Assembly: GCA_049297695.1 (NCBI GenBank)
Contig: JBAQUT010000004.1
Location: 1,170-65,169 of the forward strand
Direction: 5' to 3'
Length of the DNA: 64,000 nt
Source: Alphaproteobacteria bacterium
GTDB taxonomy: Bacteria > Pseudomonadota > Alphaproteobacteria > UBA2136 > UBA6156
The notes beneath the pieces were generated by a model, which saw only the letters and a list, made by a program, of their open reading frames with translations, had not been told where the DNA came from and made no database searches. Positions 3,089 through 27,936 of the stretch are shown in pieces. Every line of letters starts with the position of its first letter. Within the stretch, counting starts at the first letter, position 1. The translations under genes were made by a program, and so were the position numbers.

Positions 3089-5143
3089 GTGGTCCACACT
3101 GCGGAGAAAGGGTTGAACCTCGAACAAGGATTCAACCCGCCCACACCGACCGACACCCAAGGCCCGCATCCAGAACAGGATGTGGGCCTTGGTGCGTTGC
3201 GCGATGCCGTACATCCATCAGATTTTCAACTCCCTGAAACACCCCTTGGGTTTCATGTGAAGGCCACCGAAAGTGCGGGGTTTTCCATTCCTCTCGAGCC
3301 TACGGTCAGTCTCCCCGATCTTCCCCCGCCTCCTGCATTCGATGCAGGTGAAACGTTTGCAAATGTCCAGGATATCAGCCGTGTCGAGTCAGTTAGCGAT
3401 ATCGCCCACGATGTAGGGGCTGCCTTGGCTACCACGCCGCAAGAACGGCATTATTACGAGGTTTTGAAGGTGCTGCTGGCAGCCAAAGATTTGGGGTTGG
3501 ACGCCGTAGCCCGCAGCCAGATAGAAAGCGGTATTGCTGCACGCAAACTTCCCCAACTGATTTGTCGGGATTTGGTATCTCAACGGGTGCTCAACCGCAT
3601 CCAGTTGGCCCGTGCCACCGCCCGTGCCAGCAATGCGCGCGAGATTATGTCGTTTTTGGATATTCCTGGTGAAGCCTTGGGTCTACGGCAAACGCTGGAT
3701 GCCCGCATCATCGCCCTTTTGCGCAAAAACCGTATTGTCCCTCTCAGCCTTAAAAAAAGTGACGATGGCACCCAACCGACGGAACTTCACTTGGCCCACG
3801 ACAAGGTTTCACGGGATATCGTGCTACAAAACCACGTGGCCGATTTCTTTCCTCCCGGCATGCGGTTTCATTGGCATTTCATTTTAAGAGAGGTGGCAGG
3901 GGCTTACTGGCTGGCGGGCGAATCGGAAAGCATCGATACAGGGATGGAAGCGGAAGCCCTGATTGACCGCATTGTGGGGAACGCTGCCGATGCCCGCGCC
4001 TCGGATATCCATATCGATCCGTCCATCAAAGGCGAACCCCGTGCCATCATCAAATACCGCGTGGATGGTTTTGTGCACCCCAAAGAGGTGATTACTATGG
4101 AGCAGCTGGATAGGCTGCGCGTGCGGATTGAAAACCTTGCCCGTATGCCCAAGGTGAACCTCAACCACGCCAACAAAGGCGCGTTTACACGGGCAGGGTA
4201 CGATTGGCGGGTACAAATCCAGCCCCACGCAGGCCGCTTGGGCCCCGTGCCTCGCATTGTGTTGCGCCGCCTGCAGCCCGAGGTTATGCCGTTGGAAGTT
4301 TTGGGCTATCCGCAAGATTATATTGATAAAATTAAATCTGCCGCCACATCGTCCAACGGGGTTATTTTATGGACTGGCCCCACGGGTTCGGGGAAAACCG
4401 AATCCATTCACGCCGCCGTGGTGAGTGTGAACCCCATGGCTAAAGGCCTGTCGGTTCATACCATTGAAGACCCGCCTGAAAAACGTGTACCCGGCTATGC
4501 CGTACAAATGGAAATGGCGGAAGATGATCCTGCCCGTACAGGTTTGCAGTTGTTGAAATCGTCCCTCCGGGCTGACCCGGATGTGGTGATTTTTGGTGAA
4601 ATCCGGGATACTGAAATGGCCAAGTTGGTGTTTGAAGCCGCCAACACGGGCCACTTGGTGTTCAGCACCTTGCACACCAACAGCGCCATCGATTCGGTGG
4701 TGCGTTTAAGTGAGCTTGGGATAAACGGTTATTTGCTGTCTTATGTGCGGGGGATTGCATCTCAAAGGCTCATTCGTCGTTTATGTGTGCATTGCAAAGT
4801 AAAACACGAAGGACCACCCGACGAGTACACACGTTATGTGTTTGATAAATATGACGTGCCTATTGAAGGCGCCGATTTGTACATGCCCAATTTGGAAGGT
4901 TGCCCCAGCTGTAACTTTACAGGTTATTACGGCCGCGTAGCCGTGGCGGAATGGTTGCGCCCGAACAAGGAGATTATTGAGGCTACCCTGAACAATAACT
5001 TTGACCAAATGGAAGATATGGCCCGCCGCACAGGCTGGCAGCCCATGGGCCGTATGGGGGTCGAACATATTTACAGGGGTATTACCGATGCTGTTGAGCT
5101 TTCCACCAAGATTTTAGAGCTGGGCAGGGAGCTGGCCCAATGA
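3089..5143 (+). CDS. GspE/PilB-family pilus assembly ATPase with long Pro-rich N-terminal extension
   Basis: Walker A GPTGSGKTE, Walker B/Asp box DPDVVIFGEIRD, His box GHLVFSTLHTN, tetracysteine CVHC..CPSC. GTG start with GGAGA RBS. Confidence 0.9.
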   Translation: MVHTAEKGLNLEQGFNPPTPTDTQGPHPEQDVGLGALRDAVHPSDFQLPETPLGFHVKATESAGFSIPLEPTVSLPDLPPPPAFDAGETFANVQDISRVESVSDIAHDVGAALATTPQERHYYEVLKVLLAAKDLGLDAVARSQIESGIAARKLPQLICRDLVSQRVLNRIQLARATARASNAREIMSFLDIPGEALGLRQTLDARIIALLRKNRIVPLSLKKSDDGTQPTELHLAHDKVSRDIVLQNHVADFFPPGMRFHWHFILREVAGAYWLAGESESIDTGMEAEALIDRIVGNAADARASDIHIDPSIKGEPRAIIKYRVDGFVHPKEVITMEQLDRLRVRIENLARMPKVNLNHANKGAFTRAGYDWRVQIQPHAGRLGPVPRIVLRRLQPEVMPLEVLGYPQDYIDKIKSAATSSNGVILWTGPTGSGKTESIHAAVVSVNPMAKGLSVHTIEDPPEKRVPGYAVQMEMAEDDPARTGLQLLKSSLRADPDVVIFGEIRDTEMAKLVFEAANTGHLVFSTLHTNSAIDSVVRLSELGINGYLLSYVRGIASQRLIRRLCVHCKVKHEGPPDEYTRYVFDKYDVPIEGADLYMPNLEGCPSCNFTGYYGRVAVAEWLRPNKEIIEATLNNNFDQMEDMARRTGWQPMGRMGVEHIYRGITDAVELSTKILELGRELAQ

Positions 5144-8539: not shown

Positions 8540-9598
8540 GTGCAAGCCATGTTGATTTTCGCCCTGTTTGGAGCGTTCATGGCAGCCATTGCAGGTATTA
8601 TTTCATCGGCAACCGATAGTACTTTGCAAATGATGAAAAACCAAGTTGCCCAAGCACGGAGCTACTTTGACAGTGCGGAAAAAGTATGGCTGTACAACAC
8701 CGTACCCGCACACTTGCAAATTCCGTTCAATTCATGCCCCGATGGTACCAACTACGGGGTCCACGATGTCAAATCGTACCTGTGCCAAAACCAGATTGCC
8801 AAACTTGCCCAATGGTTGGGGTCTCAACAGGGCACCAAAGACCCTTGGAAAAACGATATTACAGGCTATGTCCTCCGCAAAGAAGTTCCTATTTACGCAT
8901 CCGCCCCCGATTACGTGGTGTCGGTACCCGTAACGGCCATGGTGTTGGTATCCCCAGGGCCCGACCACCGTTTGGCACCAGCGTTGCAAGCCGATATCAA
9001 CGCGTTGTCGGGCAGTTCTCAAATTAGGGATGTTTTGCGTATTGCGGCGCCCAACCCAACGACATGCTCTGTGGCAACCGACGGTAGTTGTGATGATATT
9101 GTCCATACCTTCAGCGATATGAGCGCCCAGCAAAACCGTTGGCGTGGTGTTCAAGCGGCGGTAGACCGTATTGGTTCGGCCGCTGGCCGAGATTACGGCA
9201 TGCAGTTTCGCAGTTTCCAATCCCAGCTTCCGGGTATTTATGCGGCCAACATTGCAAGCTTGTTCGATGCCAGCGGTAACTTGTCGGTAACCGCAAGCAA
9301 CATCAACTTGTGGAAAAGCCAAGGCGTATCTCCCCCCACGTTTAACGATATCGACTTGAACGACCCCGAAGAGCGTGTACGTATCGGTGTGGATGCCGAG
9401 TTTGAGTATATTACCAACTCCGTCAGCGACGGCGGGAGCAGCTTGGCGTTGGCGTTTGCCGTATCAGATAGCCCAGGCGGTTACCAGGATGTTCTCACCA
9501 TTTCCCTTTCCAACAGCGCAAGCCCTTGGGGACTGTGGGATACACAGGGTGGTGTTCTTAAGTACCAAAACATTGTCAGTTTCACCCTCGTCAACTAA
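8540..9598 (+). CDS. Membrane-anchored periplasmic protein, possible pilin-like or minor pilus component
   Basis: GTG start 9 nt after an AAGGAGAG RBS. N-terminal hydrophobic helix MLIFALFGAFMAAIAGIIS. No canonical Glu5. Confidence 0.4.
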   Translation: MQAMLIFALFGAFMAAIAGIISSATDSTLQMMKNQVAQARSYFDSAEKVWLYNTVPAHLQIPFNSCPDGTNYGVHDVKSYLCQNQIAKLAQWLGSQQGTKDPWKNDITGYVLRKEVPIYASAPDYVVSVPVTAMVLVSPGPDHRLAPALQADINALSGSSQIRDVLRIAAPNPTTCSVATDGSCDDIVHTFSDMSAQQNRWRGVQAAVDRIGSAAGRDYGMQFRSFQSQLPGIYAANIASLFDASGNLSVTASNINLWKSQGVSPPTFNDIDLNDPEERVRIGVDAEFEYITNSVSDGGSSLALAFAVSDSPGGYQDVLTISLSNSASPWGLWDTQGGVLKYQNIVSFTLVN

Positions 9599-9608
9599 GG
9601 AGATACGT

Positions 9609-10703
9609 ATGAGCCACAAACCGTTCTTGTCCAAAGCGGGTTTTTCACTCCCCGAGATTATCCTTGTGGTGTCGGTCATGGCCATCATCGCCAGTTTGTC
9701 GGCCCCTCCCTTGATTGAGTTTATGAAACGTCGGGATATCCAGGTGGAAGAAAACACCCAAAACGAAATCGTGAAAGCGATGAAACTGTACTTGGCGGAT
9801 AGAAATACATTGCCTGCCGATACCAGCCTCACATGGGCCGACGAAGTTGCCCGTTACACCAATCTTTCGGCCCAGCAGATTGCGAACGATAAATGGGGCA
9901 AACCCCGTGTGTATGTGCGGTTGGTGGTTACCGAAACGTTTTTGGGTACGCCGGTGGATATTTTTTACGTAACTCTTCACTCATCAGGCCCCAATCGTAA
10001 GGCCGAAGGCGGGGCCGCCACCGCAGGGGGCGAAACCATTGCAAACAGCGGTATTTCAACCAGCAGCAACAATTTTGATGCCCTGACCTCGACAGGGTGG
10101 TGGAAAAACAAGGCAACCGATACCGTCCGGATTGATAGTTTTGTGGCGGCACAACCCGCTGTCGACGACATGATGATTCGCTTCACCGATTACGCCGATA
10201 AAATCGCAAAATACAACACGTCGCTTGAACGCTTGCAACGGATCTCCGAAGCTTTGGAGGTGTACTCCACAACCAAATATAACGAGGCAGCCATTGCTTG
10301 CATGACCGTGCCTTGCACGCCATCGGCCGAGAAATATATTTACTATCCCCGCTCGAACGACGGGGCCACAAACCCAGCCAGTTACTACGGAAGCAACACC
10401 GCAACCGACTTAACCACCTACAACAGCGGCAACGCTATTTATAACAGCGATACCGACGATACCAACCGACGCACCCACATGATTAACTTGATGCGGATTT
10501 TGGGGCTGCCCGATGAATACTGCTGCAATGCCATGGAAAACATTACGGGCACAAAAAACGAAGTTCCTTTCTTCTACTTCAGCAACCCTCGCCCACGTAC
10601 GGCCGCGGGCTGCGGTACCCGGCCCGACCCTGCTGTGGGCCGTACCTTGCCCGCCCGTATGACTGTGAAAGGCATTAACGAGGACACCAACGTGTGCGGC
10701 TAA
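9609..10703 (+). CDS. Minor pilin / PilV-like protein with class III (prepilin) signal
   Basis: RBS AAGGAG. N-terminus MSHKPFLSKAG-FSLPEIILVVSVMAIIASL has the G/F cleavage motif with Glu5. The upstream extension to 9375 is rejected because it overlaps the previous gene. Confidence 0.7.
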   Translation: MSHKPFLSKAGFSLPEIILVVSVMAIIASLSAPPLIEFMKRRDIQVEENTQNEIVKAMKLYLADRNTLPADTSLTWADEVARYTNLSAQQIANDKWGKPRVYVRLVVTETFLGTPVDIFYVTLHSSGPNRKAEGGAATAGGETIANSGISTSSNNFDALTSTGWWKNKATDTVRIDSFVAAQPAVDDMMIRFTDYADKIAKYNTSLERLQRISEALEVYSTTKYNEAAIACMTVPCTPSAEKYIYYPRSNDGATNPASYYGSNTATDLTTYNSGNAIYNSDTDDTNRRTHMINLMRILGLPDEYCCNAMENITGTKNEVPFFYFSNPRPRTAAGCGTRPDPAVGRTLPARMTVKGINEDTNVCG

Positions 10704-11200: not shown

Positions 11201-13945
11201 ATGAACAAGGTCTGGTCACGGTGCTGCATTCCCACCGCGTTGGCGTTAAGCCTCGCGGGGTGTATGGTTGCATCGCAATCCCAAACCAGTCTTGGCGATT
11301 TCCAACTCCCCACGGCCCAACAAAATCAAGCCCAACAAACGGTGGTGGTAGAAAATCGCATGGCGGCGCTGACGCCCATGGTTCCAGCCAGCAAGCCAAT
11401 CCCGCGCAGCCTTGTGTTGCTCCGCCGGACCGAACCTGTGGAACGACCCCCAAGCCCGGAAGAGTTGGAAGCCAAAATCCAACGCATGGCCGGTGCCTTG
11501 GTGGCCGAGCGGGAGCAGGCTATTTTGGAAGCCGCCGCCGCTGCCAGCGCCCAACAAGCGGGCTTGATTGCTGCCCAAACAGGCCAACAACTGGCGGCCT
11601 CCGAGCAACGGTTGAAGCAGTACAGCGATGCCTTAACCCAGCAAGTGGCCACCGAAACCAAAACCTACGCCGCCCAAAATACCCAAGCCACGGCCGACCA
11701 ATTGAAAACCTTTGCCGAGGAAGCCGCCGCCCGCGCCGCCATGGCGGCCCAGCAAGCCGCCACTGCTACCTCCGAGCAACAAGCCAAACAAGCCGAAGCC
11801 CGCAGCAAAGCCTTTGTGGTGGGCGAGCTGGCCACGCGTGAAAGCATCACCGCCGCCAAACTGGGCGAACTTTCCGCCCAAGCCAGCGCCTCCGAAGCCC
11901 GTACCAAGGCGTTGCTAGAAACATCGTCCGCCCAACTGGCCGCGCTTACCCAAACCACGTCGGCCCAGCTTTCGGCGCAACAACAGGTGTTGGCGGCGCA
12001 ACTTTCCGCCCAGCAGCAAACGGCCAGCGCTACCAGCTCGGCTAAGTTGGAAGCCCTTGCCGCCAGCAACAACGCCTACTGGCAATCCACCCAAAGCCAA
12101 TTGGTGGGGTTGGATAACCAAACCACCAAAGCCTTGGCCGATGTGCGCATGCAACTGGCCGCCGCCAGCCAGCAAGGCAAAGAATATGCCCGCCTCCAGG
12201 CTTTGGAAGCCCAGCTGAAGGCCCAGCAAAACGCCATTGCTACCGCCCAAACCGAGGCCCAGCAAGCCGAATCCCGCGCCAAAACCTTTACAGCCGAGCA
12301 GATGGCCGCCCGCAACGAAGTGATAGGAAGCCAGATTGCGGCGTTGAAAGAAACCACGGGCATACGGTTTGATACCAACCAAAAACTTACCGAAGCCAAA
12401 TTGGAAAACGTGGCCACGCGCCTGAACGCGGCGGACGCCCAAACTCGCACCGAACTGGCCGCTAACCAGAAGGTGAACGAAGCGCGGTTCTCCAACGTGG
12501 TATCAAAATTGGAGCAAGGCCAACAGTTGACCAAAGCCGAATTGACCCAACTTCAGCAAGCAACAGCCAGCCAGCTAGGGGCCTTGGATAAGTCCACCGC
12601 CGACCGCATCCAAAACTTGGCCGATAACACCCGTACTGGCATCCAATGGCAGCAAGATATGACCGCCGCCCAATTGGCCGCGCTGGATGATAAAACCCAA
12701 TCCAATCTGCAAGCCATTCAACACACCACGGGCAGCCAGTTTGAAGCCATGAACGCCATTCAAGCCGCCCGCCACCAAGCTACGGTGCAACAGCTGGCAG
12801 GCGTGCAAGAAGCCACCAACGCCAAACTGGACGCTGCCGAAATGGCCAGCAGCTTGCGTAATGCCCAAACCGTGCAACGGCTGGAAGATTTGGAACAGCT
12901 TACCGCCAGCAACCAACGCCTGATGCAAGCCGAAAGCCGCCGGATGGCCAGTGTGCTCTCGCAATACACCGATACCCAGTTTGCGGCCCTTTCCCAGCAA
13001 ACCGATGCCACCATCGCCCATGTGGCCAGCGTGGGTAAAATGGATGTGGAAGACCTCCGCCACGATACCGCCAATCAATTGAAAACCTATTATCAAGCCG
13101 CCAAGCTGAAATCGGAGCAGCTCACCAAAGCCACCGAAACCAAGCTTGCTAACCGTATCGCCCAAGCCCAAACGGAAAGCGAAACCAAGCGCCTGAAACC
13201 GGAACAGGTGAAGGCCATGGCGAAAGAAACCTTTGCCGAATCCGCCCCCGAAGTCCGTGCGGTAACGTTGCAAACCTTGGCCGATGCCCAAGATTACATC
13301 CGCACCGTGGCCAGCAACGCCGTGAAAGATGGCGACCCCGAAATGGGCAAAGCCCTGCAGAAAGCCGCCCGCGACGTGATTGTGAAAGACAAAGATATCG
13401 TGTTCGCCATGCGCAAAGTGGCCGACAAACAGTTGGAAAAACGTTTGGTGGAACTCAACCAACCCACAGGCCCCGTGAAAGACGCCCAAGGCCGTACCAC
13501 CGTGTACAGCGCGGGGGATGACGTGAGCATCAACAGCAAAGGTTTGGGTGTGGCGCCGATTGGTGGCGATGCCGCCATTGAACCCGCCGCGGGCGACGTG
13601 AAACTGGCTGGCCTTGCCAAACCCAGCATGATGAAGGCCCGCCAGCGCCAAGATTGGATTGATTTGCGCAAATACCGCGTTATTGTGCACGAAGACGGTA
13701 AAACCTTGCCTCAACTGTTGGGCGACGTGATGGGCAAAGCCGAAACCTACACGGGACCGTGGGAAGTCAAATGGAAGATTGACCCCAAAAACAACGATGT
13801 GCTGAACGAAAAATTCAGTTTGGATGCCGAAACCACGTTTGAAGAGTTTGTGAACTATTTAGCCAACTACATGGTCAACGCCCGCGGGGTTAAGCTATCC
13901 TTCAGCTTGTTTGATAGCGAACGGGTGCTGGTGATCAGTGATTAA
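11201..13945 (+). CDS. Giant coiled-coil lipoprotein (914 aa) with TcpQ/PilL-like C-terminal domain
   Basis: Lipobox LSLAGC. About 650 aa of A/Q/T-rich heptad-like repeats (AQLSAQQQ..). Conserved C-terminal domain ..GVKLSFSLFDSERVLVISD. Confidence 0.7.
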   Translation: MNKVWSRCCIPTALALSLAGCMVASQSQTSLGDFQLPTAQQNQAQQTVVVENRMAALTPMVPASKPIPRSLVLLRRTEPVERPPSPEELEAKIQRMAGALVAEREQAILEAAAAASAQQAGLIAAQTGQQLAASEQRLKQYSDALTQQVATETKTYAAQNTQATADQLKTFAEEAAARAAMAAQQAATATSEQQAKQAEARSKAFVVGELATRESITAAKLGELSAQASASEARTKALLETSSAQLAALTQTTSAQLSAQQQVLAAQLSAQQQTASATSSAKLEALAASNNAYWQSTQSQLVGLDNQTTKALADVRMQLAAASQQGKEYARLQALEAQLKAQQNAIATAQTEAQQAESRAKTFTAEQMAARNEVIGSQIAALKETTGIRFDTNQKLTEAKLENVATRLNAADAQTRTELAANQKVNEARFSNVVSKLEQGQQLTKAELTQLQQATASQLGALDKSTADRIQNLADNTRTGIQWQQDMTAAQLAALDDKTQSNLQAIQHTTGSQFEAMNAIQAARHQATVQQLAGVQEATNAKLDAAEMASSLRNAQTVQRLEDLEQLTASNQRLMQAESRRMASVLSQYTDTQFAALSQQTDATIAHVASVGKMDVEDLRHDTANQLKTYYQAAKLKSEQLTKATETKLANRIAQAQTESETKRLKPEQVKAMAKETFAESAPEVRAVTLQTLADAQDYIRTVASNAVKDGDPEMGKALQKAARDVIVKDKDIVFAMRKVADKQLEKRLVELNQPTGPVKDAQGRTTVYSAGDDVSINSKGLGVAPIGGDAAIEPAAGDVKLAGLAKPSMMKARQRQDWIDLRKYRVIVHEDGKTLPQLLGDVMGKAETYTGPWEVKWKIDPKNNDVLNEKFSLDAETTFEEFVNYLANYMVNARGVKLSFSLFDSERVLVISD

Positions 13946-15392
13946 GAACAATAACCTTCACCGCTGCATGCTCGTAGGGGCCAGCTTGGCTTTGCCCAGT
14001 TTGGGGTTTGCCTTGGCGGAACGCCTCCCCGCCATCGAACGCGGTGTGAAAGACGGCGTGGTGATAGCCGAAACCCGCATGGCCCAAGGCGATAGCTCGG
14101 TGATTGATGCCCTTGGCCAACCCGCCGATTGCAACGGCCCCGCCCTGCAGGTGAAAGTGGCCAGCGCCTTGGGCGAAAGCCACGCCCTGTACGATGCCAG
14201 CGGCGAACCCTGCAGCGATGCCAGCTTGTTGTTTGATGGCACCAGCGCCCTGGGCCAGCGTGCGGCCGACCCCGCCGTGCAAATTGGCTTTGTGGATGCT
14301 TTGGGCGCGTTCCCCGCCGAAACCCTTCCCGCACTCCCCCGCATTGTGGTGAACAGCGACCTCATGCCCGCCGACGCTCCGTTGGCGACACCTACTAACC
14401 CCGTGGGCGCCCCAGCGGCCGATCCCTTGGCGGAAACCATCCGTGCCTGGCAAGGCAACGTGGCCCAACTGGACGACCAAACCCAACGGGATGAGATTAT
14501 CGGCCAAGGCGAAGCCACCCAAGCTGCCTTGCGGAGCCTAGACCGTCAAACCGTGGATGTTTCCAGCCAGCACGACAAAGTGAACACCCTGCTGGCCAGC
14601 CTGCGGGAAAAAGAACGGGAACTGGCCGCCGCCGAAGCCCGCGCCAAATCCAGCCGCTTGAACAGTCAACAGCAACGGAGCATGGCGGAAGCCACGCTCA
14701 CCAAAGCCCAACAGGCCGAACAAGCTATGCGGGCGGAACTTCAAGCCGCCAAAGAGCGCTTGGCCCTGCAAGAAACCCAAAACCAACAATTGGCCGCCAG
14801 CAAAGCGAAGCAGGAAAAACTCCTTACGGGCCAAATCGCCTCCATGGGGGATGATTTGAAAGCGGCGGAAGCCAAAGCCAACGCCGGCCGCCAAGAGCTG
14901 ATTGCCCAAGCCGCCGCCAAAATTGCCGAAGCCGAAGCCTTGGCCAACACCGCCCGCCTGCAGGAGGCCGATGCCAAAGCCCGCGAAGCCGCCCGCCTGA
15001 AACAAGAGGCCGAAACCATGCTGGCCCGCGCCATGGATTTGGCCAACAACAAGGCCGTGATTGCGAGCGGTATGGAAAACATCTCTCCCAAGGCCGCCCC
15101 TATGGCGCTGATGGACGTGCCCGTGGTGTTCCATGCCACCAACCAAACCCTGCCGGAGTTGCTGCAAGCCATCGTGAAGCAAGCCGAACCCCAAGCTGGC
15201 GCATGGAAAGCCGATTTCCAACTGACCAAAGCCAACAGCTTTATTTTATCTGAAAAATGGAGCCTCACCGCCGAAGCCCCCGTGAAAGACCTGCTGGATA
15301 TCCTTACCCAGCAAATCCAAACCGCCCATAAAGTGAAACTCACCTTCACCCAGTTTCCTCAAGCACGGTTGGTGGTGGTGACAGATAACTAA
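13938..15392 (+). CDS. Secreted coiled-coil protein (484 aa) with a C-terminal domain paralogous to the preceding gene
   Basis: Signal peptide. Coiled-coil middle region. C-terminus ..KVKLTFTQFPQARLVVVTDN aligns with the C-termini of 11201..13945 and 1..401. Confidence 0.65.
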   Translation: MIKNNNLHRCMLVGASLALPSLGFALAERLPAIERGVKDGVVIAETRMAQGDSSVIDALGQPADCNGPALQVKVASALGESHALYDASGEPCSDASLLFDGTSALGQRAADPAVQIGFVDALGAFPAETLPALPRIVVNSDLMPADAPLATPTNPVGAPAADPLAETIRAWQGNVAQLDDQTQRDEIIGQGEATQAALRSLDRQTVDVSSQHDKVNTLLASLREKERELAAAEARAKSSRLNSQQQRSMAEATLTKAQQAEQAMRAELQAAKERLALQETQNQQLAASKAKQEKLLTGQIASMGDDLKAAEAKANAGRQELIAQAAAKIAEAEALANTARLQEADAKAREAARLKQEAETMLARAMDLANNKAVIASGMENISPKAAPMALMDVPVVFHATNQTLPELLQAIVKQAEPQAGAWKADFQLTKANSFILSEKWSLTAEAPVKDLLDILTQQIQTAHKVKLTFTQFPQARLVVVTDN

Positions 15393-15397
15393 CAACG

Positions 15398-15532
15398 ACA
15401 TCGTCGTCATGGCGAGCGCAGCGTGGTCATCTCAAGCCAAGAGGTATAAACAAGGGTTAAGGGGGCGCTAGCCCCCTTACGCCGCAGGCGTCATTCCGGC
15501 CGCAGAGCCGGAATCCAGAGCTCACAACGAAG
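15398..15532. repeat. GC-rich palindromic intergenic repeat (copy A; REP/MITE-like family)
   Basis: Modules gtcgtcatggcgagcgcagcg...atctcaagcc and gggttaagggggcgctagcccccttacgccgcaggcgtcatt recur at 16.65, 22.25 and 53.9 kb. Confidence 0.6.
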
Positions 15533-15662
15533 CCACCATAAGGCATATTTTTGGTGCTATAAAGCAACACCTGCCTCCTGCTACCTGCTACCTGCCTCCT
15601 GCAAGGCCTTGCAAACCTCGCCCGCCGCCCCATAATGTATCTAACCAAAGGAGAAACAACCT

Positions 15663-16034
15663 ATGAAATTATCGTCCAACGCCCTTCTGACTGTAGCCTT
15701 AGTGGCTGTTCTAGTACTGGTGGGAACAGATGTACATGCCCAAACAACTGGTGTTCTTTATACAAAAACGCGTGATTTAGTTACTGGAAATATTGGGTTC
15801 TTTATTGGCCTGCTGCTTGCAGTATGGGGTATCTGGACTTGGGTTGTAAAACAAGAAACCATGGCTGGAATTTTTATGATTGTGGGTGGTGTTTTGATTA
15901 CCATTTCTCCGGGTGTACTTAACTTTATGAGCAGTATTGTTAACCCTGTTGCTAAGCTTGGTGCAACATCACTCACAGAAGTTAAAGGTTCTAATGAAAC
16001 TAAAGATTTGATTGGTATTGGTAGTGGGCAGTAA
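15663..16034 (+). CDS. VirB2/TrbC-like T4SS pilin (paralog 1)
   Basis: RBS AAGGAGAAA. Signal peptide ending AQ plus two hydrophobic helices. 123 aa. Confidence 0.7.
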   Translation: MKLSSNALLTVALVAVLVLVGTDVHAQTTGVLYTKTRDLVTGNIGFFIGLLLAVWGIWTWVVKQETMAGIFMIVGGVLITISPGVLNFMSSIVNPVAKLGATSLTEVKGSNETKDLIGIGSGQ

Positions 16035-16346
16035 ATGATTAAAAAACTAAATATCTTGTGTGTGGGGCTGCTGATATTTCAGCCCCTTTTTGTTTTTGCG
16101 GCTGAGTCTGATGTTGCAGGTAGTCGTGAATTGAGTGCATTGAGCAATGTTGTAACAGGCCAGTTAGGTTTTTTTGTAGCCCTTGTGTTGGCCATATGGG
16201 GTATTTGGAAAATGTTTGTGTCTGGGGAAAATGCGGCAGGTTTCATTCTGTTAATTTGCGGCGCGGCTCTAACAATATTCCCTGGGATATTTAATTTTGC
16301 TGAAAGTATAGTTGTTCCATTTGCAAAAGCGATTACAGGTGGTTGA
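16035..16346 (+). CDS. VirB2/TrbC-like T4SS pilin (paralog 2)
   Basis: ATG immediately follows the previous stop. Same signal-plus-2-TM architecture, 103 aa. The mature part (GFFVALVLAIWGIWKMF..) aligns with paralog 1. Confidence 0.7.
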   Translation: MIKKLNILCVGLLIFQPLFVFAAESDVAGSRELSALSNVVTGQLGFFVALVLAIWGIWKMFVSGENAAGFILLICGAALTIFPGIFNFAESIVVPFAKAITGG

Positions 16347-16355
16347 TATTTTATT

Positions 16356-16625
16356 ATGAATGCCCGCCCCGTCCCCCGCAACATTGACCGCCCCAACCGT
16401 ATCCCCGAATACGTCATTACATGGACGGCATCTTACTACGGCACCATGTTTGTCTCCCGTGAAGCCATTCTTGCCTTTTTGATTTCCTTCATGGCCGTCT
16501 ACCTCATGTACCGCTTCACGCTGGAAAAGCCCGAAGGCATCATGATGCGCATGCTGTACAAATACGTGCAAATCGGCAAGCTGCGGCCAAGCCCACGGTT
16601 TGTGAAACGGTTTGAGCTGTCGTGA
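16356..16625 (+). CDS. Small inner-membrane T4SS protein (VirB3/TraL-like)
   Basis: 89 aa with a single TM (ILAFLISFMAVYLMY). Positioned directly after the pilin genes, as in vir/tra operons. Confidence 0.45.
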   Translation: MNARPVPRNIDRPNRIPEYVITWTASYYGTMFVSREAILAFLISFMAVYLMYRFTLEKPEGIMMRMLYKYVQIGKLRPSPRFVKRFELS

Positions 16626-16649
16626 GTGAGGGGCTAGTCTAAGGTTGTG

Positions 16650-16835
16650 TCATGAGGGGGAGGGGGTTAAGGGGCGCAGCCCCTTACGCCGTAGGCGTCA
16701 TTGCGAGCGAAGCGCGGCAATCTCCCAAGCTTTGAGTTGACAGATTGCCGCGTCGGACGCGCTCCACGCGCTCCCTCCTCGCAATGACGCTCCGCGTTAT
16801 AAGGGGGTAACCCCCTTAACCCCCAACTTGTCGTG
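16650..16835. repeat. GC-rich palindromic intergenic repeat (copy B)
   Basis: Contains a ~100-bp imperfect palindrome (ggcgtcattgcgag ... ctcgcaatgacgc). Its terminal 50-bp module cgttataagggggtaacccccttaacccccaacttgtcg is nearly identical to 54093..54131. Confidence 0.65.
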
Positions 16836-17024
16836 GGTTAGCTATATCTTACCTAAAGACTGTATAAAATTTCAGGAAGGTTATGCAGAAGTTTGCAAAA
16901 TGCTCTATGGACTAAAAAATCGTAAACGCTAACGACATCTGCGTCATGCATCTTGGCGCTTGATTCTTGCATGTTTAACAAGCATTCCCTCGCTATATAC
17001 AATGTTCCGCGCTAGTCTGAGCTC

Positions 17025-17699
17025 ATGGATTTTGTCGCCCGCGCCGGTTCGTTTATCGATCGTGCCCACCGTATGGCAGGCGTGCTGCTGCTGATTGTCA
17101 TTTTACAAAGCCTGATTATCATCAACCAATGGAACAACAACAACGACATGGCCGAGCAATTGCGCTACGTGGCCGTGCGCATGCCTGTATATGTGGTACC
17201 CGGCGCCACCCGCGGGATTTACAGCCCCACGGAAGACGATTTGCTGATTAAAGCCTTTGTGGATCAAGTCACCCAAAGCTTTAAAACTTTCACGTACGAA
17301 ACATTGCCCAACCAGTACCAAGAAATGAAACAGTTCTTCACCCCCCAAATGCTGGTGAGTGCGGAAGGGTATTTCAGCAAGGCCTTGCGGGATAGCCAAG
17401 CCGACCGCCGCAGCAGCCTGTTCATCCCCGACCATCAAAGCATGAAGGTGGAGAAGGGGACTGAAAATGGATTGGAGGTGCGGGGCGTCACCATCCGCGG
17501 CAGCCTGCAAACCGTGATTGCCGGCAGTGTGGTAGAGAGTTTGCCCATTGAAATTGTTTTGAAAATCCAAAAATCCATGATTTCCAAAGCCAATCCGTTC
17601 GGGTTCCAGCTGGCCGAATACCGCGAACGCGCGGTTTCCCAGCAATCGGCCCAGCCGTTTATCCCCCAGCCCAGCCTTGAAGGAGGTACGCCCCAATGA
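17025..17699 (+). CDS. Bitopic T4SS protein (VirB8/TraE-like)
   Basis: N-terminal TM MAGVLLLIVILQSLIIINQW with a periplasmic domain. Gene order is pilin, B3-like, then this gene. Confidence 0.5.
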   Translation: MDFVARAGSFIDRAHRMAGVLLLIVILQSLIIINQWNNNNDMAEQLRYVAVRMPVYVVPGATRGIYSPTEDDLLIKAFVDQVTQSFKTFTYETLPNQYQEMKQFFTPQMLVSAEGYFSKALRDSQADRRSSLFIPDHQSMKVEKGTENGLEVRGVTIRGSLQTVIAGSVVESLPIEIVLKIQKSMISKANPFGFQLAEYRERAVSQQSAQPFIPQPSLEGGTPQ

Positions 17700-18412
17700 T
17701 GATGTTTGTACGTATGATGGTGGTGGCCTTGCTGCTGCCGTTGGCGGGGTTTGCCGATACCATGGTGTGGCGCGGCCCTACCCAAAGCCTCACCATCGGC
17801 CTCTCGCAAGATGACATTGCCCACATTGAAATGCCCGAAGCCATCACCAATGTAACTTTGGAAAACCAAGATTACGTGGATGTGCTGGTGGTAGAAGGCT
17901 ACAACAACCGTGCGTTCCGCATGCGCAGCCTGCTCCCTAAAATGGCCACACGGATGTTTTTAACCGGCGCCAGCGGCAACACGTACATTGCGGTGCTGAC
18001 CACCGATGTCCCTTACCGTGCTTTCGTGCAGGTAGTGAATGGACTGGAAGTTGACAACGTGGCCCGCAAAGTGAGTAAAAAATTTGGCCCGACCGATATG
18101 GTGCGCGGCATGGCCACCAACACGGATATGCCTGGCGTGCAGCGCGAAACCTACGTCATCCCCAACTGGTTCAAAGGTGGTGGATTGACGTTTGACCTCT
18201 CGGAAGTGTGGCAATCTCCCAAGCTCACAGGTATTGTGGTGAACGTGCGGAACGATACCCCTGCCGCCAACGAGGTGAACCTTCCCGCCATCACGCTCCC
18301 CCGTACCGACGAGTGGGGAACCCTGCGCTACGCCAGCATGGAAAACCTTCGCCTCGCCCCCAGCGGCCGCGCCAATGACCGTGGCGTGATGTTTCTTATA
18401 TTCGTGCGTTAA
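17696..18412 (+). CDS. Secreted T4SS core protein (VirB9/TraK-like)
   Basis: ATGA overlap with the upstream gene. Signal peptide MVVALLLPLAGFA. 238 aa. Confidence 0.5.
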   Translation: MMMFVRMMVVALLLPLAGFADTMVWRGPTQSLTIGLSQDDIAHIEMPEAITNVTLENQDYVDVLVVEGYNNRAFRMRSLLPKMATRMFLTGASGNTYIAVLTTDVPYRAFVQVVNGLEVDNVARKVSKKFGPTDMVRGMATNTDMPGVQRETYVIPNWFKGGGLTFDLSEVWQSPKLTGIVVNVRNDTPAANEVNLPAITLPRTDEWGTLRYASMENLRLAPSGRANDRGVMFLIFVR

Positions 18413-18467
18413 CCCTTGACAACCGCATCCAACCAAACTAGATTGTCTGCACGGTTAGTTGGGTAAC

Positions 18468-18505
18468 TAAAAAAAGGGCGGCTGCGTTAACAGTCCGCCC
18501 TTTTT
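18468..18505. terminator. Bidirectional rho-independent terminator
   Basis: A-run, then a 9-bp GC stem (gggcggctg/cagtccgccc, one bulge), then TTTTT. Confidence 0.6.
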
Positions 18506-18507
18506 GC

Positions 18508-18582
18508 TTATCTGCGGATGATAAGGACGATGGTGAATCGTACCTTGCTCAACCACAGAAGCAAGGCACCATAGAGGTCCAT
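18508..18582 (-). CDS. Candidate 24-aa hydrophobic small protein (MDLYGALLLWLSKVRFTIVLIIRR)
   Basis: AAGGAG Shine-Dalgarno lies 7 nt upstream of the ATG. The stop codon abuts the intrinsic terminator. Too short for the ORF track. Confidence 0.35.
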   Translation of the reverse strand: MDLYGALLLWLSKVRFTIVLIIRR

Positions 18583-18751
18583 GGTTATGCTCCTTTCGGT
18601 TAGGTTGGGTACGGAGCACCACGCCACTACGGCCATTATTTTGTATCATAAATCAAATATCCCTGCAACAGCCGGATGCTTAATTTCAATGCATGTGACG
18701 GTAAGTTTATATCTCCCACTCGCCAAACCTATCGTGGTGCCCTATAAGTAG

Positions 18752-19519
18752 ATGATGCTGCTGCGCGCCGCCCTGATGTTACTCTGCCTGCTGGCCCCTG
18801 TGGCCCATGCCGACTATGAGCGTGACCCCTACAGCGCCACCATTGCCCGCGAAAGCTGGAACCTGATTGGCCGCACCGAACAAACCAACAATATCCCCGC
18901 AGGCTTACTGCACGCCATGAGCCTCACCGAAACGGGCCAAGGCATGAGCGGCTGGATGATGCCCTGGCCCTACACCGTGGGCGTTAACAGCCCTGGTAAA
19001 AAAGATTACCTCAAACTCCAGCATGCCCTGAACGACCTTGCATGGTTCCGCAAAATGGGGTTCGCCCGGTTTGATGTCAGCGCCGGTGGTAAATCCGTGA
19101 ACGGCCTCAAGGTGGATGCCGCCGCCGTGCTGTTCAACCTGTACCCTACGGCCACCAGCTACACCATCAAGCCCCAGCCCTACGGCCGCCGGTTTGCCAA
19201 CGCGGTGGAAGCCCGCGCCTTTGTGGATAAAATGTTCAGTTTTGGCCATAAAAATTTGGATTTGGGCCTCATGCAAATCAATTACAAAGTGCACGGTTCC
19301 AAATTCCGCAGCGTGAACGACCTGTTCAACCCCGTGGTGAACGTGAATTACGCCGCCAGCTACCTGCTGGAACACAAACAAACCCGCGATTGGTGGGGCA
19401 GCGTGGGCCGCTACCACAGCGCCACTCCCACCTACGCCCGCAAATACATTACCAGCGTGTACAAGTGGTACAAACGGGTTCATGACTTCAACAATGGTCG
19501 CCAGATTGCGGCGCGGTAG
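18752..19519 (+). CDS. Specialised lytic transglycosylase (SLT domain; VirB1/PilT(R64)-like)
   Basis: Signal peptide. GLMQI motif plus the conserved E..S..GA..LMQ pattern. Confidence 0.85.
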   Translation: MMLLRAALMLLCLLAPVAHADYERDPYSATIARESWNLIGRTEQTNNIPAGLLHAMSLTETGQGMSGWMMPWPYTVGVNSPGKKDYLKLQHALNDLAWFRKMGFARFDVSAGGKSVNGLKVDAAAVLFNLYPTATSYTIKPQPYGRRFANAVEARAFVDKMFSFGHKNLDLGLMQINYKVHGSKFRSVNDLFNPVVNVNYAASYLLEHKQTRDWWGSVGRYHSATPTYARKYITSVYKWYKRVHDFNNGRQIAAR

Positions 19520-19583
19520 GGCTTGAAAGTGTCAGATCAGTTCCCCATATACCCTATAAAGGTAATGTAAAAGGAGCAAAATC

Positions 19584-19943
19584 ATGATTAAGCTTGGAAA
19601 TGTGACTATGGATGCCGAACGTTTAAAGTCGGTTATTCAAACCTTTCATGATGATCAAATTGAAGAAATGGCCTATTGGTTTTCATCGACCCTTGGATTT
19701 GGGTTACCCGAAGGTCATTCAAATGTAAAAGAAGCTCTTCTTTCTATTATTGATGAGAAAAGGATTCATCCAGAACTTGCAACAGCTCTTTACGCTGCGT
19801 TTATTGGTATGCGCATAGAAGAACAACGTGAAAAAGCACCAGAGAAGAAGCATTTTCGGATAACACGATTTGGTATTGTTGAAAAAGAAACGTCAAAAAC
19901 TTTCCGTATTGTTGATGATGGCCGAGATAATGAGCGCAGTTAA
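19584..19943 (+). CDS. Hypothetical protein, AT-rich islet gene
   Basis: Strong RBS AAGGAG. Clearly lower GC than flanking genes. Confidence 0.55.
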   Translation: MIKLGNVTMDAERLKSVIQTFHDDQIEEMAYWFSSTLGFGLPEGHSNVKEALLSIIDEKRIHPELATALYAAFIGMRIEEQREKAPEKKHFRITRFGIVEKETSKTFRIVDDGRDNERS

Positions 19944-20077
19944 TATCTTGTCTATGATCTTTGATCTCATACCTCTGACCATCTTCCCACACCCCCGTCA
20001 GTTTTCGAACCCTCAATCCTGACATCCCTCCCACACCTCTGCTAAGGTGCCCATAACAACAAAAAGGGTACTTTCGT

Positions 20078-22246
20078 ATGGCCAAAGCCAAACCTACCAA
20101 GGCCGCCAAGCATGTTGCCAAGGCTGCGCCTAGTGAGGTGGTTAAGGCGAAGGCCAAACCTGTCGCCATGCCTGCCGAGGACGACCTGAAAGCCGCCGAC
20201 GAAGGCTACCAACTGGCCCGCAAAGATGCCGCCAAATACCTTCACAGCCGCCGCCAAGCCATGTTTGCCCTCTCCCGCCGTTACCATTTGGAACCCGAGG
20301 ATGTGGAGCAAGAAGGTTTTGAAGTGCTGCTCACCTGTTTGCGGGATTTCAAACCCCAGTACACCAAAGCCAACGGCGAAACCATTCACGTACTGTTCAA
20401 CACGTTTTTTGGCAGCCGGTTGGATGGCAAGGCGCTGGAACTCCGTAACCGCGACCCCGAATACCAAGCCCGCCAAGCGCATTTGGAAGATATGTCGGAG
20501 GCCGATAAAACAGCTTTCCGCCAAGCCCCGCCGTTGTTAGTGCAACATCTCGACCAACAAACCTCCATGCAAGAACACCTTACCAGCGAGGCCTCCAACG
20601 CCCGCCGCAGCAATCAGGTGAGCACGGCCATGAAGATTGCCCACGACAGCTTCATTGATAAAAAACTCAACCAGCTGATAGCCCAAGAGCGCGATGACAA
20701 ACGCCGCGCTGCCCTGATGCATGTGAAGGTGGGCGGGGTGAGCAGCTTTGACGACATCGCCTACCACTTTGGGGTGACGGACAGCCGCGCCAGCCAGATT
20801 TTGAACGACCTGATGGACGCCTTTTACGTGCAACGCCTGCTGGATGGCGACCTGAAAAGCGTGGCGTACGATTGGAAAAAACTGAAAATGCAGCCCAAAC
20901 GCGCCGCCCGCCTTCTGGAAGACGCCGTGGCCAACAGCACGCGGGAACGCGCCAGCGAAATTGTGGCCGCCTTTGTGGCCGATTACCCCGAGGCGAAAAG
21001 CCTGCCGTTACCGGAACTCACGTCGGAGGCATCTGCCTCCGCCCCCGCCAAACTCACCACCGCAGGCACGGGCCGCACCTTTGCCGACCCCTTCACGGTG
21101 GACGACGATGCCCGCTACCCTTTGCTGGGTCTGGAATGGCGCAGCGTAGCCAGCCTGAACCCCCTGCACGTGCCCTTCCGCAACGGAGCAGATGACGCCC
21201 ACGAGCAACCCCACATCACCACCATCATGGCCACCGAGGCCGACCAATGGCCGCTCATCATCACCCACGAAGGCGGCGTGGTGGATGGCCAGCGCCGCTG
21301 GCATGCTGCCCAGCAGCGCGGCAAAGATAAAGTGCTATGCTTGGTGCGCCAAGTGCCCGAGCACGATGCTAAAATCATGCGTGTAGTAGCCAACTTGCGG
21401 CAAATCAAAGCCGACAAAATGGACGTGTACTTTGCCATCAGCGCCCTCAGCGATTTAGGGCTCTCCCAACAACGCATCGCTGCCGCCCTTGGTATTTCGC
21501 GCCCCAACGTGATTGTTTACGCCAAGGTGAAAGACAAAGCCACGCCCAAACTCCGTGCGTTGTTTGAGGATGGCTTCATCCAAATTACCAACGCCAGCGC
21601 CAGTGTGGATTTACCCGCCACCGCCCAAGACGGCATGGCGGAGTTCATCCGCAAACACGGTGCCACATGGGGCAAAGGCCCCCAGTTTAACGAGGTTTAC
21701 GAGGCCGCCGCCTCGGGCAAACTCTCCAAACTGGCCGCCATGCAACCGGAGCCTCAAGCCCCCAACACGACCGCAGCACCAACTCCCGCATGGGCGCCCG
21801 TTCCAGTATCCACCGCCATGGCCGTGGCCCCGGCCGACCAAAACGTGGTGCAAGCCCTGCGCAACCGTCAAACCGCCATGGAAACTGCCCTGCGCGACGC
21901 CGAAACCTGGGGCCAACAGCGGGAAGGGGTAGTAGCCCGCCAAACGTCAGAAATCACGGATTTAAAACAACAACTCGATGCCCTCAAGCGCGAACTTCAA
22001 GCCCACGACTTGCTGAAATACGGCGACGAAGCCACGGTGGCGGGTTTGATGAAAGAAATCAAAGGTTTTTACGCGGTGGTGGAACGCTTGGCTGGCGCCA
22101 GCTACCAACTGGATAAAGCCCATAAATCCCTGCGCGGCCAACCGTTAAGCTACAAACAAATCCAAGAGGTTCAAACGCTGACCGACACCATGGAAGCCAG
22201 CCTGTCCGCCCTGCGGGTGGAGCTTTCCAGCAAAAACCGTCGTTAA
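20078..22246 (+). CDS. Fusion protein: Lys/Ala-rich tail plus sigma-70 region2/region4-like plus ParB/Srx-like nuclease domain plus coiled-coil
   Basis: N-terminal AKAKPTKAAKHVAKA repeats. EDVEQEGFEVLLTCLRDFKP is region-2-like. VSSFDDIAYHFGVTDSRASQIL is a region-4 HTH. DGQRRWHAAQQ is a ParB GxxR motif. Confidence 0.6.
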   Translation: MAKAKPTKAAKHVAKAAPSEVVKAKAKPVAMPAEDDLKAADEGYQLARKDAAKYLHSRRQAMFALSRRYHLEPEDVEQEGFEVLLTCLRDFKPQYTKANGETIHVLFNTFFGSRLDGKALELRNRDPEYQARQAHLEDMSEADKTAFRQAPPLLVQHLDQQTSMQEHLTSEASNARRSNQVSTAMKIAHDSFIDKKLNQLIAQERDDKRRAALMHVKVGGVSSFDDIAYHFGVTDSRASQILNDLMDAFYVQRLLDGDLKSVAYDWKKLKMQPKRAARLLEDAVANSTRERASEIVAAFVADYPEAKSLPLPELTSEASASAPAKLTTAGTGRTFADPFTVDDDARYPLLGLEWRSVASLNPLHVPFRNGADDAHEQPHITTIMATEADQWPLIITHEGGVVDGQRRWHAAQQRGKDKVLCLVRQVPEHDAKIMRVVANLRQIKADKMDVYFAISALSDLGLSQQRIAAALGISRPNVIVYAKVKDKATPKLRALFEDGFIQITNASASVDLPATAQDGMAEFIRKHGATWGKGPQFNEVYEAAASGKLSKLAAMQPEPQAPNTTAAPTPAWAPVPVSTAMAVAPADQNVVQALRNRQTAMETALRDAETWGQQREGVVARQTSEITDLKQQLDALKRELQAHDLLKYGDEATVAGLMKEIKGFYAVVERLAGASYQLDKAHKSLRGQPLSYKQIQEVQTLTDTMEASLSALRVELSSKNRR

Positions 22247-22249
22247 AAC

Positions 22250-22335
22250 GTGTCGTCATGGCGCTTGTCCTCCGTAGCCTTGGCGAAGGAGGAAGCATAG
22301 TCATCTCATGCCAAAGGCAAATCCTGTAACTAGTA
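22250..22335. repeat. GC-rich intergenic repeat (copy C, variant of the gtcgtcatggcg..gtcatctca module)
   Basis: Shares gtcgtcatggcg and gtcatctcatgccaa with copy A. Confidence 0.5.
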
Positions 22336-22413
22336 ACCTGTCCCGCCACACCCCCACCCTCAAAACCCGCCCTACCCCTTGAACCCGCCCCCAAACCATC
22401 CCATCCTGTACCT

Positions 22414-24315
22414 ATGGCCCCAAAAAACCTAGGCTCGTGCGCGCATCTCATCACCGTTGTGGTGGTGGTGCTGTCTCTCACACTCTCTACACTGGTGCCG
22501 CAGGCGGCAGTGGCGGGCGGGTATTCCGGCAGCTACGAAAGCGGCAACCCCTCCCGTGGTAACTTGGGTGGATTTATCCCCAATTATGGCGGCGAGAGCG
22601 AACTTTTCAGCGTTAAATCGAGTAGTGGCGTCGGCGCAAACCTGGGCTGCGGAATGATGAACTACATGGATTTCGTCAAAGCCACGTTCAATGTGTCGGA
22701 TATGGCTGATCAGTTTAAGGGTATGATGCAAACATTTATGGCTAAGATTTTGTTAACATATTTAATGTCATTTCCTCCCATTGCAGCCGCATACGATGCC
22801 ATTAACTGGTTGGCCGATGCTAAGGCTAAGGTGTTTAACCAAAGTTGCGATATTGCCGAAGCCCGTAAAGACGGCGCCAAGTTGTACAAAGGGATTTGTA
22901 ACGATGCGTACAGCGCAGCAAAAACAGGTGATTGCACGAATATAAATTCTGTTGATCCTATGAGAGCCATCATGTTTTGCGAACAAGCGTTGAAAGATGG
23001 GCCTGATGTCTTCATTACCCGCTGCATGGCAAACTCGGAGCCTTTAAAACCTTTGATTGCTGCGGCTGATAAGGCTCTCCAACAGGTTAAAGAGGAGTTT
23101 TTTGGTGATCCTGTAGGTTGTCATAGAGGAGATATCTGCGACAGTGCAGAGGCTCCAGGTGCAGGAAGCAAGGTTGTAGCAGGTTGCTTGGCCATGAGTT
23201 ACATGCCTCGGATTTGTTTTGAAGCAAATGGAAGTCTTGGAAACAAGGGTATGGGTGGTAGTAAATGTGTTGGAGGTAAACGGCGTAAGCCACCTATCTC
23301 TATGGATGGAGTAACTCAAGCCTTTATCCAATATAGCATGTACACGATGGATGCCTGTGGGCGTGTGTGGGATGATATCCGCAAGGCCGACCCCAATATG
23401 GAAGCTTCTACCATTGAGAAAATTGGTACTGAGGCCATTGCTTTAGCTAATACTGACCAACTCACAATGTCCTCCAACCAAGTGGCACCATTAGCCCAAG
23501 GACCTCTGAAATTAGCCTTTACCGATATGTCTCTTGTTCTGAAAGCGTTTGGGGCGACGGCAACGAACGAATCCCGCAACAAAATGCTCCAAGATTATGT
23601 GGATAACGAGCTGCCGGGGATTGATTTGAACGGCCCCAGCAAAGAGTTGTTGAACCCCTTGCGGATGTGCAAATTTGTGGCGGAAGCTGCCCGTGCTGAA
23701 ATGGCGTTGCAGGGTAAAAACGCTCAGATATCTGATCCAGAAATGGGCGGTAAAGTGGATGCTGCCCAGTTCTTCAACCTTCCCAGCACAGGAGAAACTT
23801 CTGACAAGTTGGCGGCCGATGGGTTGGATGCCCAAACAGCTGCCCTGATGTTGGAATATACCTTTGGTTACATTGTGAATGTTCAAGGTGGAATTAACAT
23901 GACCAACCCTGTTGCTATGTCTAAGTTAGCGTTAAGTTCGGGCAGAGTGTGGGGTGATTGGGCGAGTGATAGAGGTATGGATGTTTCATGCATGGGTATG
24001 GATAAAATCTTGGACTATTTAAATGGTGTAATTATAAAAGCTCAAACCACAGCTGGGTCTCAAAATGTAACTAGTGGAAGTACCACAACCAAAGAAGGTG
24101 CAGATACAAGTACAAAAGCATGTAATGCACCTATTGAGGCTGTTAAAAAACAATCGGAAAAAACATTTGATTATTTAGAAAAGTATTTTAAAAGCTTAAA
24201 AGATAAAAATACGTTGTGGTGTTCTAACCGCCCTAAACTCCAAGAGCGCAACAGGCAGTTCTTTACCCCCGAGAACACCTTTGCCCCCACTCGCTCGGAT
24301 GCAGGTAACCTGTAA
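22414..24315 (+). CDS. Cys-rich secreted or membrane-anchored protein (633 aa), compositionally AT-rich
   Basis: N-terminal hydrophobic anchor. About 18 Cys. GC drops sharply from ~22.7 kb to the 3' end. Confidence 0.6.
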   Translation: MAPKNLGSCAHLITVVVVVLSLTLSTLVPQAAVAGGYSGSYESGNPSRGNLGGFIPNYGGESELFSVKSSSGVGANLGCGMMNYMDFVKATFNVSDMADQFKGMMQTFMAKILLTYLMSFPPIAAAYDAINWLADAKAKVFNQSCDIAEARKDGAKLYKGICNDAYSAAKTGDCTNINSVDPMRAIMFCEQALKDGPDVFITRCMANSEPLKPLIAAADKALQQVKEEFFGDPVGCHRGDICDSAEAPGAGSKVVAGCLAMSYMPRICFEANGSLGNKGMGGSKCVGGKRRKPPISMDGVTQAFIQYSMYTMDACGRVWDDIRKADPNMEASTIEKIGTEAIALANTDQLTMSSNQVAPLAQGPLKLAFTDMSLVLKAFGATATNESRNKMLQDYVDNELPGIDLNGPSKELLNPLRMCKFVAEAARAEMALQGKNAQISDPEMGGKVDAAQFFNLPSTGETSDKLAADGLDAQTAALMLEYTFGYIVNVQGGINMTNPVAMSKLALSSGRVWGDWASDRGMDVSCMGMDKILDYLNGVIIKAQTTAGSQNVTSGSTTTKEGADTSTKACNAPIEAVKKQSEKTFDYLEKYFKSLKDKNTLWCSNRPKLQERNRQFFTPENTFAPTRSDAGNL

Positions 24316-24392
24316 CCTGCCCACCACACATGCAAACAACCTGACAGCTTAAGGTTTCCCCTCTATACTTTCTCAAAACAAGGGGAGGGGGC

Positions 24393-27933: not shown

Positions 27934-27936
27934 CCC

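Follow-up and report, generated by a model that had tools for sequence, protein, structure and literature searches.

The stretch of DNA considered here, referred to throughout as the window, comprises 64,000 nucleotides (nts) of a metagenome-assembled Alphaproteobacteria genome (GenBank assembly GCA_049297695.1, contig JBAQUT010000004.1, positions 1,170 to 65,169). Its first 34.6 kb carry two gene blocks on the forward strand, with housekeeping genes after them: a type IV pilus-like gene set (1–15.4 kb) and a distant F-like type IV secretion system, or T4SS (15.7–34.6 kb). The pilus-like block closes with the genes of two proteins of 914 and 484 residues, hereafter CC914 and p484, both of which are present as a preliminary description of this DNA had reported them, and which are translationally coupled through a short overlap of their reading frames (Table 1). 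Together with a secreted protein whose gene is cut by the left edge of the window, hereafter the upstream protein, they carry a small C-terminal module that is the subject of this analysis.

The module spans about 95 residues and follows the β-α-β-β-α-β-β order of an N0-like fold. It had been proposed that all three proteins share it. Between CC914 and p484 the similarity survives pairwise alignment, with 32% identity over 93 residues (BLASTP E 3e-15), and extends to a comparison of the CC and p484 families to which the two proteins belong (hhalign probability 99.8%, E 2e-28). For the window-initial fragment it is weaker, amounting to E 0.067 against p484 and to no match against CC914 in pairwise BLASTP. 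The tie is provided instead by the portion of the upstream protein that the window lacks. Full-length orthologues of this protein (P0077–P0080 and the open reading frame, or ORF, at 3271–4572 of locus L006) are about 415–438 residues long and comprise two modules in tandem besides a signal peptide and a P/Q-rich region. Judging from the L006 orthologue, from which the sequence to the left was inferred, module 1 lies almost wholly outside the window and module 2 is complete within it. Against a hidden Markov model (HMM) built from the CC and p484 families only, module 1 of the full-length protein scores E 1e-9 to 1e-13, which secures the membership of the fragment in the module family; module 2 scores E 7.7e-6, over its first 36 positions, about the first third. 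Since the upstream protein has two tandem modules, the three proteins of the locus carry four modules in all, and no further ones were found elsewhere in the window.

The same preliminary description had likened the module to the C-terminal domains of TcpQ and PilL, an identity that does not hold at the level of named families. The Pfam TcpQ model (PF10671, gathering score 27 bits) leaves the three window modules unmatched up to E 10 and 28 members of the p484 family unmatched up to E 1. Its best result, in register but sub-threshold, is with module 1 of the orthologue P0077 (13.6 bits, E 0.075), as against 57.7 bits and E 1.3e-15 for the positive control, PilL of plasmid R64, in the same library, in which R64 TraH also scored strongly. 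Likewise, the conj_PilL model TIGR03748 matches none of the three proteins at E up to 1, and the DotD model PF16816 neither the window proteins nor the modules. At a remote level, however, the likeness stands. A small TcpQ-domain profile of five sequences (R64, IncK, IncI2, Yersinia pGDT4 and Burkholderia) matches the module profile (A3) from one end to the other, over 80 columns, with an hhalign probability of 90.4% and E 1.4e-6, while the reversed and 30 column-shuffled control profiles reach at most 2% and a best E of 0.024. This profile comparison, the sub-threshold PF10671 match on module 1 and the UniRef name of one orthologue (P0040), "TcpQ C-terminal domain protein", support placing the modules in the TcpQ/BfpG superfamily, at the remote level only.

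When 1.84 billion representative proteins were searched with a profile of all four module types, 213 matches were obtained, 209 of them below 1e-10. By the measure of ordinary sequence search, then, the modules make up a closed and unnamed family that does not connect to TcpQ. A sequence-profile search of the PDB with the module returned chance matches to designed proteins only, and megablast and tblastn searches against plasmids and Escherichia coli genomes found nothing. A mucin-like and probably eukaryotic protein of 3161 residues with 18 weak module matches (P0096) was judged unrelated; these are probably repeats of another small α/β domain.

CC914 begins, as had been noted, with a signal peptide and lipobox, and ends in the module. 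What lies between is chiefly a predicted helical stalk of 580 residues without a single proline, rich in Ala, Gln and Thr (22% Ala and 14% Gln between residues 90 and 700). The stalk had been described as A/Q-rich, heptad-like repeats. The composition is borne out, but neither the heptads nor the repeats are: the hydrophobic period is 3.65 residues (about 11/3) rather than 3.5, staying at 3.6–3.8 in all 120-residue windows, and self-BLAST detects no internal protein repeats. Judged by composition and periodicity, the stalk would fit hendecad-type packing or plain amphipathic helices. If it formed one continuous helix, simple arithmetic (580 residues × 0.15 nm) would give it a length of about 87 nm. 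The lipid anchor is not a conserved feature, as a 771-residue orthologue lacks the lipobox and about half of the family has one (51 of 103 CC clusters, scored as [LVI][ASTVI][GAS]C at the end of the signal peptide). That same orthologue has an intact ORF 46% identical to CC914 over 647 residues; the position of the gene and its C-terminal domain are kept in more than 100 clusters; and the ORF contains no DNA tandem repeats. The idea that the 914-residue ORF is a frame artefact of GC-rich, low-complexity DNA, to which its biased composition and the long overlapping ORFs on the opposite strand could lend some color, is refuted by this conservation and by synteny in more than 10 species, and its probability is negligible.

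p484, identical to NCBI WAZ18_00295, combines its module with a conserved N-domain bearing two Cys and a conserved helical segment of about 190 residues. In the window it has an ordinary signal peptide and no lipobox, whereas 56 of the 77 p484 clusters possess one. A profile search with the N-domain sequence found no match, and its AF2 model is poor (pLDDT 59.7). Beyond the module, the two families share a short [ILV]EPAAG motif, which occupies fixed relative positions in both and occurs in about 20–28% of the clusters of each, at residues ~155–165 in p484 orthologues. In the six-frame translation of the window, [ILV]EPAAG occurs once, in CC914.

A scan of GTDB representative genomes recovered related loci in 11 species, all of them uncultured Alphaproteobacteria known from metagenome-assembled genomes, some under other labels. 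In every locus with enough flanking sequence the order is the same: pilus block with its pilin, an ORF with only an A24_N domain, CC, p484, and the block beginning with traA. The A24_N ORF, of 108–169 residues among orthologues, lies directly 5′ of the CC/p484 pair in all related loci. Against this constancy of order, the two proteins differ sharply in their latitude of length. p484 homologues range from 461 to 564 residues; CC homologues comprise a stalkless group of about 170–260 residues and, above it, lengths that run continuously from 316 to 1028, with CC914 itself near the top. Orthologues thus have stalks of anything between 0 and about 850 residues, and about 40 family clusters lack one. 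Short CC forms keep the same neighbors, full-length p484 included; in L029, A24_N is followed by a short CC. By inspection, CC length bears no obvious relation to the lengths of other pilus-block ORFs. So wide a spread of lengths (about 170 to 1028 residues) within a constant gene order speaks against a fixed-length device, and the earlier proposal of a molecular ruler was rejected on this ground; a tether of defined length fits no better. Also rejected was a heterodimeric coiled coil between the CC and p484 stalks, as stalkless CC forms still adjoin full-length p484 genes. A different setting is that of L026 (10001–13749), a TARA marine contig of 30% GC. Its CC of 316 and p484 of 509 residues both have lipoboxes, and two paralogous genes for type IV pilin-like proteins follow them, in surroundings of housekeeping genes; within 10 kb of the pair there is neither a pilus ATPase gene nor a secretin or T4SS gene.

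Table 1. Coordinates of the features where the two gene blocks meet and of the elements to either side (window positions; residue numbers refer to the protein named)
Feature	Position (nt)	Residues	Strand	Remarks
End of upstream protein (secreted, two modules)	3–401		+	C-terminal 132 aa of a ~430-aa protein
Upstream protein, module 1, last 12 aa	3–38		+	ends ..RLVITD
Upstream protein, module 2	126–368		+	complete
Lipoprotein secretin	398–2323		+	lipobox LALAAC; Pfam Secretin E 4e-17
Prepilin-like ORF	9375–10703		+	listed start probably too far 5′
A24_N-only ORF, 138 aa	10694–11110		+	PF06750, E 1.6e-24
CC914, 914 aa	11201–13945		+	ATG start
CC914 signal peptide and lipobox		1–21		LSLAGC, Cys21
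CC914 motif SLVLLRRTEP		70–79		
CC914 predicted helical stalk	11459–13198	87–666		A/Q/T-rich, proline-free
CC914 conserved helical segment		~667–760		
CC914 IEPAAG motif	13577–13594	793–798		
CC914 N0-like module	13661–13942	821–914		
p484, 484 aa	13938–15392		+	GTG start; 8-nt overlap with CC914
p484 signal peptide and motif DGVVIAETRM		N-terminal		
p484 conserved two-Cys N-domain	14043–14312	~36–125		
p484 conserved helical segment, ~190 aa	14490–15062	~185–375		
p484 N0-like module	15102–15389	389–484		
GC-rich hairpin, 3′ of p484	15458–15479		not assigned	consensus scan only
Promoter-like site, 5′ of traA-like gene	15609–15636		+	9/12 matches, consensus scan
Two tandem TraA/VirB2-like pilin genes	15663–16346		+	first of the F-like T4SS block
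Lipoprotein, 148 aa	27937–28383		+	LALAGC; between TraB-like and TraC-like genes

The pilus-like block opens with the end of the upstream protein, whose gene overlaps the start of that of the secretin. The secretin is a lipoprotein, which agrees with the statement that this type of module accompanies the lipoprotein secretins of type IVb pili; in addition to its Pfam Secretin match it has weak STN and Secretin_N_2 matches and an MshL-type NCBIfam match under the cut-off. Between its lipid Cys and its N0 domain, the N-terminal region contains a conserved ..A[VI][LV]G[IV]GEP[VI]S.. segment. It is followed by a T2SSE ATPase, a T2SSF platform protein and several unnamed ORFs, and the 3′ portion of the block consists of the prepilin-like ORF, the A24_N-only ORF, CC914 and p484. 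No Peptidase_A24 catalytic domain was seen near the A24_N ORF. Read from a Met 3′ of its listed start, probably the better choice, the prepilin-like ORF continues with SHKPFLSKAG/FSLPEIILV and gives a prepilin of about 365 residues with a short leader and Phe at position +1. Type IVb pili are marked by a lipoprotein secretin with a TcpQ-like partner and by a long-leader prepilin whose first residue is not Phe. The window presents the secretin and the TcpQ-like partner, but its pilin-like ORF (..SKAG/FSLPE), with its short leader and Phe +1, is unlike classical type IVb prepilins. The hairpin 3′ of p484 may be the end of the pilus transcription unit, and the promoter-like site that follows it may be the start of the T4SS unit, to go by consensus matches.

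Beyond p484, the gene order mirrors that of the F plasmid (traA-traL-traE-traK-like … traB-lipoprotein-traC). The two TraA/VirB2-like pilin paralogues are followed by a weak TraL match (16356–16625), and then come a weak TraE match, a 238-residue ORF, an SLT transglycosylase, a ParB-like protein, unnamed ORFs, a TraB/TrbI-like protein, a 148-residue lipoprotein and a TraC/VirB4 ATPase. The TraK-like product is encoded at 17696–18412 and the TraB-like one at 26494–27933. The 148-residue protein may serve the T4SS as its own lipoprotein of the outer membrane, sitting as it does where TraV lies in F-type operons; as it has no Pfam match, this TraV-like assignment is by position only. Pfam and NCBIfam recognized neither a relaxase nor a coupling protein (VirD4/TraD) in the T4SS block (15600–34600), and no family for the large ORFs at 22414–24315, 24393–26387 and 31546–33627. 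In several related loci a gene for a UvrD-like helicase lies between the SLT and ParB-like genes (L001, at 15003–16748; L003; L004) or adjoins the SLT gene (L005). This gene is missing from the window, which has a 119-residue ORF in its place (19520–20078) and in which tblastn found no remnant of it throughout. The sole Rfam match of the window is one tRNA gene (54169–54240, reverse strand).

Several known systems resemble this arrangement in part. Type IVb pilus secretins need one small N0-fold partner, exemplified by TcpQ of the Vibrio cholerae toxin-coregulated pilus (TCP) and BfpG of the bundle-forming pilus (BFP) of enteropathogenic E. coli (EPEC); to our knowledge, the elaboration of that partner outside enteric pathogens is unexplored. 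TcpQ and BfpG are single-domain proteins of about 130–150 residues, present in one copy per system, whereas here three paralogues carry four modules, two of which are joined to long helical regions in proteins whose genes lie 9 kb from that of the secretin, and none of which is matched by PF10671 at threshold. PilL of the IncI plasmid R64, which has counterparts in the type IVb pilus clusters of ICEs, is a lipoprotein that joins a long N-terminal region to a TcpQ domain at its C-terminus. Its gene lies 5′ of that of the lipoprotein secretin PilN, and the locus likewise combines a type IV pilus and a T4SS. Yet the proteins described here lack a TIGR03748 match, PilL has no coiled-coil-like stalk, and the T4SS is F-like rather than I-type as in R64; moreover, the N-terminal region of PilL is not similar to p484 (hhalign probability below 1%), and a second module sought in the middle region of PilL was not found (probability at most 4%). 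DotD (of the Legionella Dot/Icm system, with TraH as its R64 counterpart) and Xanthomonas VirB7 are short proteins of about 110–160 residues that differ in having no helical stalk and show no sequence-profile similarity to the modules. Finally, the N0/STN domains of secretins, TonB-dependent receptors and phage baseplate hubs are parts of the channel or hub protein, whereas the present modules are free-standing at the C-termini of accessory proteins.

We favor, at a probability of roughly 0.5, the explanation that CC914 and p484 are accessory subunits of a lipoprotein-secretin pilus machine, their N0 modules docking on the secretin. It builds on the homology of the modules, their N0 fold and remote kinship with TcpQ, the conserved gene order and the variation in length; the secretin as binding partner, the formation of rings and the role of the stalk we infer by analogy. 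The closest structural precedent is BfpG, 17 copies of which form a hoop on BfpB, a lipoprotein secretin, in a 17:17 complex through strand binding by β-augmentation, and are required for pilus biogenesis (PMC12531336). By the same token, the three paralogous periplasmic proteins, each ending in one or two modules, would dock on the periplasmic part of the adjacent lipoprotein secretin by pairing of β-strands, as BfpG does, and so build or stabilize accessory rings. The two-module protein encoded 5′ of the secretin would be the positional counterpart of TcpQ, BfpG and PilL, with CC914 and p484, as the coupled pair closing the pilus gene block, contributing additional accessory layers. CC914 would be lipid-anchored in the outer membrane and bear its module on a long, non-repetitive amphipathic stalk, an evolutionarily elastic spacer of 0 to about 850 residues rather than a fixed ruler, and p484 would bring in its conserved disulfide-type N-domain and helical segment. 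The pair was assigned to the pilus block on four grounds: the order A24_N, CC, p484 is constant; the T4SS has an F-like order from traA onward and its own lipoprotein at the TraV position; in L026 the pair occurs without an adjacent T4SS; and, as weak evidence, the hairpin and the promoter-like site precede traA.

A number of observations weigh against this assignment, and several of them lend themselves to a different one, namely that the two proteins serve the F-like T4SS as accessory subunits of its outer-membrane core complex. This main rival likens them in function to DotD and Xanthomonas VirB7, in which an N0 domain is joined to a lipoprotein anchor and which make up an outer ring. The two genes lie 9–11 kb 3′ of the secretin gene and directly 5′ of the T4SS pilin genes, adjoining traA, and in L005 the pair has stayed with the traA block while the remaining T4SS is inverted. 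The N0-like fold is no arbiter, as the same fold also serves T4SS outer-membrane complexes in DotD and VirB7, and the choice of the secretin as the complex that the modules bind is by analogy. A dedicated TcpQ-like protein already adjoins the secretin, and the need for two more is unexplained. The promoter and terminator scans used consensus alone and yielded site counts no higher than in shuffled sequences, and the helical or coiled-coil state of the stalk is likewise read from composition and periodicity. Still, membership in the T4SS core complex is a tentative proposal that we regard as rather improbable. The profile comparisons favor TcpQ (hhalign 90%) over DotD, for which PF16816 has no match; a lipoprotein in the place of TraV is already present in the T4SS block; the L026 pair adjoins type IV pilin-like genes and has no T4SS genes nearby; and in L029 it is A24_N that precedes the short CC form.

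It is also conceivable, though unlikely, that the pair links pilus secretin and T4SS physically in a single super-complex of the envelope, as in the earlier idea of a tether, with the N0 modules on one machine and the N-terminal parts or stalks on the other. The pair stands exactly at the junction of the two blocks, which are adjacent in every locus with enough flank, and the three paralogues share short N-terminal strand-like motifs and [ILV]EPAAG, which could be docking peptides. Such coupling, proposed from sequence and position, fits poorly with a stalk that ranges from 0 to about 850 residues and so provides no defined spacing, with stalkless forms in the same gene order, and with the pair of L026, which has no adjacent T4SS. 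In its most elaborate and somewhat more doubtful form, the three paralogues, with their four N0 modules and N-terminal strand motifs, would form a multi-layer scaffold that holds the type IV pilus secretin together with the outer-membrane complex of the F-like T4SS as one dual-filament envelope machine, the species-specific CC914 stalk setting its geometry. Least attractive among the functional proposals is that of a surface-exposed fiber, which had been suggested earlier, or of an adhesin. A long helical region behind an N-terminal lipid anchor could suggest one, but nothing else points that way: the C-terminal N0 module is of a periplasmic fold class, Pfam and NCBIfam recognize no β-barrel, autotransporter or sorting domain, and about 40 family clusters dispense with the stalk, all of which makes a fiber highly improbable.

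Taken together, the locus represents a divergent, unnamed branch of a known kind of protein, and not a new machine. In this closed family the partner domain of a pilus secretin has been triplicated, tandem-duplicated within one protein, and fused to helical regions. As the Pfam and NCBIfam models miss it, the family deserves a database profile of its own. Its loci also document that, in uncultured Alphaproteobacteria, a type IV pilus block and an F-like T4SS are conserved as neighbors on the chromosome. Lastly, the helical region of one paralogue, extending from 0 to about 850 residues amid constant synteny, offers a natural series for the study of stalk function.

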